This document shows, in pieces, positions 58,274 through 60,724 of a DNA stretch of 64,000 nucleotides. Below the pieces are notes generated by a model. It was not told where the DNA came from and made no database searches. It saw nothing but the letters and a program-made list of their open reading frames with translations. Both the position numbers and the translations under genes were made by a program. Every line of letters starts with the position of its first letter. The first letter of the stretch is position 1. The stretch comes from Octopus vulgaris (lineage: Eukaryota): contig OX597836.1 in the NCBI GenBank assembly GCA_951406725.2, positions 46,872,001 to 46,936,000 on the forward strand, written 5' to 3'.

Positions 58274-58740
58274 GTACAAAATTAGAAAATGGATACGTAT
58301 ATATGTGCATGTATAGATATATACCTATATAGATACACACACACATACATACACACTCAAACGCAAATACACACACATACATATAAGGTTGGAAAGAAAG
58401 TCTTGTTGCATTTGAAGAATTTGAAGATGGAAAAGAAATAAATTCTTCTTTGGTTTCGACTTTTTTAATCAGGATAATATTTCTCCTCATTATTCATAAC
58501 ATAATCCCATCTATTTAGCAAACGGCTAATCCCTAGGCTGTAAAATTCTTCAGATTTGGAAGCAAAGAAACACTCAATATCATTTTGAATCTCTTCTTCA
58601 CAGTTATAAATAAACGAATCGTCTGAAAATACGAAAGTGAGCTGGAACAAGATCTTCAAAGTATGGAGGAGGAGGCAAACTTTCTATATTTGGTGTCATG
58701 AGGTTTCCCTGGGTAATTTTGTAATATCGTTTAAGAACAA

Positions 58741-59496
58741 CACTCCTTTATGATTGACCAACACTCCTCTATGATTGACCAACACTCCTTTATGATTGAC
58801 CAACACTCCTCTATGATTGACCAACACTCCTTTATGATTGACCAACACTCCTCTATGATTGACCAACACTCCTCTATGATTGACCAACACTCCTCTATGA
58901 TTGACCAACACTCCTCTATGATTGACCAACGCTCCTTTATGATTGACCAACACTCCTCTATGATTGACCAACACTCCTCTATGATTGACCAACACTCCAT
59001 TATGATTGACCAACACTCCTCTATGATTGACCAACACTCCTTTATGATTGACCAACACTCCTCTATGATTGACCAACACTCCTTTATGATTGACCAACAC
59101 TCCTCTATGATTGACCAACACTCCTCTATGATTGACCAACGCTCCTCTATGATTGACCAACACTCCTCTATGATTGACCAACACTCCTCTATGATTGACC
59201 AACACTCCTTTATGATTGACCAACACTCCTCTATGATTGACCAACACTCCTCTATGATTGACCAACACTCCTTTATGATTGACCAACACTCCTTTATGAT
59301 TGACCAACACTCCTCTATGATTGACCAACACTCCTCTATGATTGACCAACACTCCTTTATGATTGACCAACACTCCTCTATAATTGACCAACACTCCTCT
59401 ATGATTGACCAACACTCCTTTATGATTGACCAACACTCCTTTATGATTGACCAACACTCCTTTATGATTGACCAACACTCCTCTATGATTGACCAA
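58741..59496. repeat. 36 x 21-bp minisatellite (cactcctYtatgattgaccaa)
   Basis: ORF 58696-59538 has 252 aa of 7-aa LVNH(R/K)GV units, i.e. 36 copies. Confidence 0.97.
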
Positions 59497-59560
59497 CGAT
59501 GGGTGCTTTATTTGCAGATTTTTGAGCAATGCTTCCAATTAACAATACTTCTCCGTATCA

Positions 59561-59750
59561 AGGCGGCGAGCTGAGAGAATGGTTAGCATCATTTCGTCCA
59601 TCTTTACGTTCAGAGTTCAAATTACGTCGGGGCCTACTTTGCCTTTCATCCTTCCGAGGTCGATAAAATAAGTACCAGTTGAGCACGGGCGTTGATATAA
59701 TCGACTTAAATCTTCCCCCAGACTCTTGGCCTTGCACAACATTTTAAAAC
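59561..59750 (+). mobile_element. SINE family B with TSD caataYttctcc
   Basis: TSD at 59543-59554 and 59751-59762. Confidence 0.8.
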
Positions 59751-59796
59751 CAATATTTCTCCACATTAACTGTTTCATTTAGGTTCAATAGTTTAT

Positions 59797-60014
59797 TATT
59801 TCTTTACTACCCACAAGGGGCTAAACACAGAAGGGACAAACGGATTAAGTCAATTATATTGACCCCAGTGCGTAACTGGTACTTATTTAATCGACCCCGA
59901 AAGGATGAAAGGCAAAGTCGACCTCGGCGGAATTTGAACTCAGAACGTAACCGCAGACGAAATACTACTAAGCTCTTCGCCCGGCGTGCTAACGGTTCTG
60001 CCAGCACGCCACCT
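59797..60014 (-). mobile_element. SINE family B (3' part of the U6atac chimera)
   Basis: RC head aggtggcgtgctggcagaaccgttagc, tail gtagtaaagaaataa. Confidence 0.9.
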
Positions 60015-60034
60015 TATTTATTTATTTTTTTTTT

Positions 60035-60139
60035 CTAGAAATAGGTTGCTCTGAAGTAGAGAGTAATGCCCATATGTGTTAGAAAGATCGATTGATCTCT
60101 TCCGTCCTTGTCAAGGGGAGTGCTAACCGTCTCTCCTTT
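60035..60139 (-). pseudogene. U6atac: U6atac minor-spliceosome snRNA retrocopy, 5'-truncated
   Basis: Minus strand AAAGGAGAGAcGGUUAGCACUCCCCUUGACAAGGAcGGAAGAG...GGCAUU...CUACUUC matches the conserved U6atac 5' domain (AAGGAGAG box, AGC triad, ISL); followed by an A tract. Confidence 0.88.
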
Positions 60140-60724
60140 TTTGGTTCAATAGTTTATGATAGATAACACCCTTCATATCTCACCAAACACAGAGCAAAAT
60201 TTTTTGCGAATAGAGTCTGGGAATAGAATCTCCCCTTTTCATTGGGTGCCAGCAACTGTCGTATTCGTTGGATATGATTATAAGCGACTCACATTCCCTC
60301 ACTAAAGGTTTGGTAGTAAGTCCGCTCTTCAATGACCAACTAAGGGCGACACTCTAAGTCAAGAAACCGTCAGATGATGAAGGACCTACAGGACAGGAGT
60401 AGACATTATTAGTTGTTTATGAGGGTGTTTTATATTTTGCTAATTCTTAAGCAGTTTGGTTTGGATTTTCCTCAACTACTGCTCTTAGAAGCTCGATATT
60501 AACGACACTTGATCATCGGAAAACAGCGAGTGAAAAATTTTCCAGGCGAAACTAGCCAATCCCTCATTAGCATATCCAGACACAGTAATGTTTATTTCCG
60601 TAGAAGGAATATTCCTTACAGCTTCCATTGTTGAAAAGCCCCTTTTTAATTCATACAACATGCAGTGTCGCGTGTGGTTCTGATTTAAACTAACTTTAAA
60701 AGGTAGAATCCAAACGCGAATTAG

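Follow-up and report, generated by a model that had tools for sequence, protein, structure and literature searches.

A truncated U6atac snRNA copy joined to a SINE in Octopus vulgaris, and the recurrence of such fusions across the genome

In a 64,000-nucleotide stretch of contig OX597836.1 of the Octopus vulgaris assembly GCA_951406725.2 (hereafter the window, in whose positions all coordinates are given), a sequence derived from the minor-spliceosomal U6atac snRNA lies ahead of a SINE, inside a mariner element. This arrangement raises the questions of whether the two parts arrived in one integration or in two, by which route they could have been joined, and whether the locus is an exception in its host genome. 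We examined the locus itself, its mariner paralogues, the solo copies of its SINE (SINE B) and the copies of U6atac and other small RNAs across the genome.

Structure of the locus, its mariner host and the parent gene

The window locus consists of a 5'-truncated, promoterless U6atac sequence, an A-rich linker and a full-length SINE B, all under a single 15-bp target site duplication (TSD; Table 1). The two copies of the 15-mer are identical at 15 of 15 positions, as stated in the preliminary description made from the sequence of the window. The Rfam U6atac model (RF00619), suggested there as a check, matches positions 60037-60149 of the minus strand with 75.9 bits (gathering score 33, E 5e-18). 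The U6atac-derived DNA itself spans 60143/60142-60039 on the minus strand, that is, gene nucleotides 7/8-111, with a 5' end 6-7 nt short and an overlap with the TSD of at least 1 nt; the 5'-truncated U6atac had thus been recognized correctly, but its placement at 60139-60035 of the minus strand was about 4 nt off. The copy is identical to the U6atac gene (locus L001) at 104 of 105 positions and has three T left of the terminal T-run. The full SINE B reported on its 3' side is present in the same orientation, starting 25 nt past the U6atac end, with 9 differences when compared to the majority sequence of the 29 copies nearest to it; the final two A of the linker may be part of the SINE head. 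The linker had been taken for poly(A): it is A-rich but mixed in sequence, and it may or may not derive from a tail added to U6atac. Matches to mir-1277, mir-297, mir-3149 and RUF21 in the same Rfam search were dismissed as (TA)n artefacts under the gathering score.

Table 1. Features of the U6atac-SINE B locus and its flanks, in window positions
Feature	Position	Strand	Description
Host mariner transposase fragment	60158..60330	-	decayed; upstream side of the insertion
5' TSD copy	60143..60157	-	15 bp (18 bp possible with one mismatch)
U6atac retrocopy	60039..60142	-	gene nt 8-111; 5'-truncated; no PSE/TATA upstream; 1 substitution vs gene L001
A-rich linker	60014..60038	-	25 nt: CTAG, A10, TAAA units
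SINE B	59797..60013	-	full-length, tRNA-type, 217 nt
3' TSD copy	59782..59796	-	15 bp
Mariner fragment	59730..59781	-	resumes past the insertion

The flanking DNA encodes a mariner transposase (Pfam Transposase_1, E 1.6e-5) that has decayed through stops and frameshifts; accordingly, the claim that the mariner frame resumes across the insertion holds locally but not overall. In the comparison with empty mariner sites, about 24 of 29 paralogous copies (70-90% identical), judged by eye, run through a single copy of the site and continue into the same downstream sequence, and U6atac is absent from the insertion site in all 29. Both TSD copies have common substitutions that depart from the usual mariner sequence, and the duplication therefore arose at this locus. 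A tandem array with a 21-bp unit occupies window positions 58740-59500, approximately 280 bp from the insertion, and a diverged SINE B-like head is found beyond this array (59560-59710).

The genome contains one promoter-bearing U6atac gene, L001, with a PSE-like motif and a TATA box that resemble those of U6 genes and with a T-run terminator. PSE-like and TATA motifs were found only at L001 and at the U6 genes, and the DNA upstream of the window copy is mariner. Given that this copy lacks the 5' end and the promoter and that its T-run is reduced to three, it is not expected to work as an snRNA; the 99% identity to the gene would fit a working second gene, which the mariner DNA in place of the PSE-like and TATA motifs makes extremely improbable. 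The preliminary description was right in that the host has a minor spliceosome, given the presence of L001 together with full U12 and U4atac genes, for which the window copy is superfluous as proof. One loop base of U6atac, compared across L001-L030 and L061-L073, is T in 17 loci and C in 14 (11 unreadable, 1 A); the gene carries C, and the copies with T may reflect either an older state of the gene or a second gene.

One integration or two

U6atac and SINE B probably arrived in a single event. Among 29 solo SINE B copies of the subfamily nearest to the window copy, 21 have a TSD of 9-18 bp (null 1.1%) and the other 8 have no detectable TSD, whereas the search for a separate short TSD around the window SINE alone yielded, at best, a 6-bp repeat of A/T. 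A single event is favored because the 15-bp outer repeat fits the TSD sizes of solo SINE B copies and the 6-bp inner repeat does not, in agreement with the original interpretation of a chimera under one TSD. Other snRNA-SINE B fusions carry outer TSDs of 9 bp (L011), 14 bp (L081), 14 bp (L087) and 12 bp (L018), the latter value coming from the unrestricted search, as the restricted one missed this locus when the chain entered the next element; over 900 nt, the unrestricted search is swamped by microsatellites, as seen in the null. L018 represents an independent case of U6atac followed by TAGA, A-rich sequence and SINE B, and its TSD begins in microhomology with the SINE tail.

The alternative scenario, already considered in the preliminary description, is that U6atac with an A-rich tail integrated first, generating the 15-bp TSD, and that SINE B inserted later at the end of the tail, with a TSD of its own of 5-6 bp. 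A-rich tracts are indeed targets of SINE B, which at L230 sits in the tail of another SINE, and the human genome contains U6atac retrocopies with poly(A) tails (PMC4476161, table 1). Furthermore, ATAAA/AATAAA is found both in the linker and in the first bases of the 3' TSD, and only 3.5% of random sites would match to this extent by chance. A (TAAA)n leader precedes 11 other SINE B copies, and in 6-7 of these it is repeated past the 3' end of the SINE. However, the repeats at A-rich SINE B insertions are 8-20 bp long rather than 5-6 bp, the TSDs of 21 of the 29 solo copies are all at least 9 bp, and L018 would demand a second unusually short inner TSD. SINE B is not less diverged than U6atac, although the divergence values (9/217 vs 1/105 differences; Fisher p 0.18) do not discriminate between the two scenarios. 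With the 6-nt match between the linker and the 3' flank remaining in its favor and the TSD sizes weakening it, we consider the two-event scenario unlikely. A (TAAA)n leader built into a SINE B subfamily was also explored and rejected: besides the window copy there are 11 further matches (12 in all), 6-7 of which have a leader that belongs to the target DNA, and the head variant of the window copy is common to just one other copy.

The evidence from TSDs does not extend to most fusions in the genome. A long outer TSD is absent at two of the five U6atac-SINE B loci (L024 and L062), and fusions with SINE A or with short tails (see below) show no TSD outside microsatellites; hence the TSD shows a single-event origin for only a minority of the 36 fused U6atac copies. 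At L098 (1075-1860, minus-oriented), one 16-bp direct repeat encloses a SINE B dimer, a 5'-truncated U6 and another SINE B, which is likely a double jump. In the subfamily of solo copies mentioned above (L105-L133), GTA follows most of the 29 copies and the TSD starts there, so that SINE B is likely to be primed by microhomology at GTA.

Fusion partners of U6atac and other small RNAs

In the survey of the genome (2.8 Gb, 227 contigs), 46 scored candidates yielded 43 U6atac matches (L001-L030 and L061-L073), all of which were examined and which include each of the 16 matches to an exact 30-nt U6atac pattern. Apart from the gene, these comprise 3 copies that are truncated at the 3' end and 39 that are complete there. 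A same-strand partner starts within 25 nt downstream in 36 of the 39 3'-complete copies, compared to 2.1% expected for a random position. The partners are 16 SINE A heads, 5 SINE B-like heads, 14 short element tails of about 50-65 nt and one other tail. The partner references were taken from eight chimeric loci, of which 2 U6atac and 6 U6 loci are self-matches, and the search is blind to families missing from this set. The proposed genome-wide search for junctions thus revealed the same kind of fusion recurring across the genome, and the suggestion that the chimera is unusual for its host did not survive it. Inspection by eye of 72 copies of U6atac, U6 and 7SL revealed none with a poly(A) tail, no partner and a long TSD. 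With 42 of the 43 U6atac matches being non-genic, such copies would inflate snRNA annotation.

The junctions retain individual features. Among the 21 SINE-head partners of U6atac, 20 begin no more than 7 nt from the 5' end of the reference; by contrast, the junctions vary across the 43 loci, with T-runs of 3 to 9, and sequence read through from the gene is retained at the junctions of L007 and L017. The recurrence of the same partner families, namely SINE A and SINE B-like heads, would be expected of an amplifying U6atac-headed SINE comparable to the SINEU family. Nevertheless, the junctions differ from copy to copy, and no U6atac end was found in the 60 nt upstream of any of the 29 SINE B copies nearest to the window copy, so that an amplified family, like the working gene discussed above, can hardly account for the locus. 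The short elements (about 50-65 nt) have a fixed 5' start and a hairpin and occur alone, behind snRNAs or as the tail of SINE A (examples are L005, L088, L089, L095, L096, L153, L154 and the window).

Other small RNAs served as controls. For U6, 30 of 48 matches were examined, 7 of which are genes; a partner was detected by script in 20 of the 23 non-gene copies and by eye in 2 more. For U6, 185 sites, genes among them, match an exact 26-nt pattern; U6atac capture (16 exact matches) is thus roughly one tenth of that of U6, in a comparison where the patterns differ and genes are counted. All 25 7SL matches were examined: 15 are genes or gene-like (14 gene copies are located on C5, mostly in one cluster), and all 10 dispersed copies (L174, L175, L177-L183, L185) are fused at or just past their 3' end, mostly via the terminal T-run, to short element tails or 3' parts of SINE A.

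The Pol II snRNAs present a different picture. None of 42 U1 copies, most of which are genes, has a partner from the reference set; the dispersed copy L224 bears a different short tail, which in L226 is found inverted upstream, whereas L222, L225 and L227 retain the 3'-box extension within (TTA)n tracts and are likely retrocopies of unprocessed pre-U1. U12 (one gene and two fragments) has no same-strand partner; one of the fragments (L152) meets a SINE B-like sequence in inverted orientation head to head, an arrangement reminiscent of twin priming. For U4atac, there are one gene and two truncated copies, and L242 (1466-1900) is the copy that is joined to SINE B. Here, a 3'-truncated U4atac precedes a full SINE B; the pair lies within a SINE A head, the 5' end of U4atac is duplicated, and the insertion has a repeat of about 7 bp. 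As this case involves a 3'-truncated Pol II snRNA, capture can do without a U-tail. Altogether, capture strongly, though not exclusively, favors U-ended Pol III RNAs, Pol II snRNAs being captured rarely.

Origin of the junctions and relation to described chimeras

Two routes would place the junction within a single integration. The one we prefer, at a probability of about 70%, is target-primed integration with a template jump from the 5' end of the SINE onto the ends of other RNAs. Under this scenario, the LINE machinery that moves SINE B would nick the mariner and prime on the SINE 3' end, the reverse transcriptase would copy all 217 nt of SINE B, and an end-to-end switch to the 3' end of U6atac would follow, with drop-off 6-7 nt short of the U6atac 5' end. 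The linker likely has one of two sources: a short tail-element RNA, onto whose A-rich end the enzyme would briefly have jumped first, making the insertion a double jump, or the U6atac RNA itself, if extended by oligo(A). End-to-end jumping is favored by the near-intact 5' ends of 20 of the 21 SINE-head partners, by the variable T-runs and by the read-through sequence at L007 and L017. Transcripts of SINEs made by Pol III are expected to carry a 5' triphosphate. Serial end-to-end jumping by a non-LTR reverse transcriptase has been demonstrated in vitro for an R2-derived enzyme (PMC8594491). A search for the driver LINE via matches to the SINE B tail alone produced 4 matches in the DNA examined, none of which was informative.

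The other route is RNA ligation, in which RtcB would join the cyclic-phosphate end of U6atac to a SINE-containing RNA with a 5'-OH, and the chimeric RNA would then be retrotransposed in one integration. A single TSD is equally expected, and such ligation has been shown for U6 and L1 in human cells, where U6atac, too, is stated to end in a cyclic phosphate (Moldovan et al., 2019; PMC6789731); the 7SL result is also compatible, to judge from a title on cyclic phosphates of human SRP RNA among the references of PMC5855946. However, the ligation described there joins U6 to 5'-OH L1 RNA and loses much of its efficiency when the 5' end is triphosphorylated (PMC6789731). In octopus, most partners start at an intact SINE 5' end, where a triphosphate is to be expected; the T-runs of 3 to 9 and the occasional read-through are unlike a uniformly trimmed mature end; and at the window locus the A-rich linker lies between the two RNAs. 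Ligation is therefore improbable in our view.

With regard to the linker under template jumping, a brief jump onto the RNA end of a C/E-type tail element is plausible, given that the linker starts with CTAGA before turning A-rich, that CTAGA or TTAGA directly follows the hairpin in 10 of the 19 C/E-type tail elements examined, and that L025 contains a comparably short remnant of another tail. Oligo(A) extension of U6atac is a plausible source as well; polyadenylation of U6 is discussed in PMC5855946. A read-through source, with a tail element upstream of SINE B amplified as a unit, was rejected, the 8 exact matches having spacers that are all different.

The window locus is a well-preserved, presumably inert member of a described class, the group IV snRNA/non-LTR chimeric pseudogenes defined by Doucet et al. 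(2015; PMC4476161): it is snRNA-derived, located 5' of a SINE in the same orientation, enclosed by one TSD and devoid of promoter or gene flanks. The cases given in that source include human U6atac/Alu (14-bp TSD), U6/Mon-1 and U6/L2 of platypus, and U6/AnolisSINE2 and U6/RTEX-2 of Anolis; hence a SINE as partner, regarded as unusual in the preliminary description, has precedent in U6atac/Alu, U6/Mon-1 and U6/AnolisSINE2. The class shares with the window locus the 5'-truncated promoterless snRNA ahead of a SINE, the single TSD and the same doubt as to one event or two; the octopus locus differs in its invertebrate host, its full-length SINE and its A-rich linker. At the genome scale, 36 of the 39 3'-complete U6atac copies of octopus are fused, compared to 7 of 23 characterised human copies, and the octopus fusions extend to all 10 dispersed 7SL copies (PMC4476161 for the human copies and the class). 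7SL and other RNAs also serve as heads of L1 chimeras (PMC11838501).

Three other systems are comparable in part. In the RtcB-dependent U6/L1 chimeras, a U6-type 3' end is likewise joined to the RNA of a retroelement prior to integration, but the partner there is a 5'-OH, 5'-truncated L1, as opposed to the mostly intact SINE 5' ends or fixed-start short tails of octopus (PMC6789731). The WEIRD/Mg-SINE/MGL chimeras of Magnaporthe attest to single and double jumps outside vertebrates, with one 14-bp repeat; the tripartite chimera differs in its fungal host and in a head RNA that is no spliceosomal snRNA (Gogvadze et al., 2007; PMC2104539). SINEU of crocodilians also has an snRNA-derived 5' end on a non-autonomous retroelement, but its copies stem from masters with shared structure, whereas the octopus copies have individual junctions (Kojima, 2015; PMC4494074). 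No such chimeras in molluscs, cephalopods or invertebrates were found in the titles and abstract openings searched, which cover few subscription journals.

As a dead pseudogene, the single locus is of little import, and the genome-wide pattern, which extends the formation of U6-type chimeras to a mollusc and is apparently undescribed for molluscs, carries more weight. The pattern is also relevant to the choice between template switching and RtcB ligation, given that most partners start with an intact SINE 5' end and that the captured 7SL retains its terminal U-run. In human, U6atac is present at less than 1% of the level of the major snRNPs and turns over fast (PMC3728624); such a low level, together with capture at about one tenth of U6, would fit nascent RNA as the acceptor of the jump. 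Tentatively, and at somewhat less than even odds, at least two retrotransposon machineries might routinely finish a SINE and then jump onto the U-rich ends of new Pol III RNAs (U6, U6atac and 7SL), with occasional double jumps within one insertion, such that nearly every dispersed copy of these RNAs would be a hybrid. If this is the case, the octopus genome would provide a natural test set of hundreds of junctions for telling template jumping and RNA ligation apart, and what the chimeras document would be the nascent output of Pol III, not the steady-state abundance of its products.
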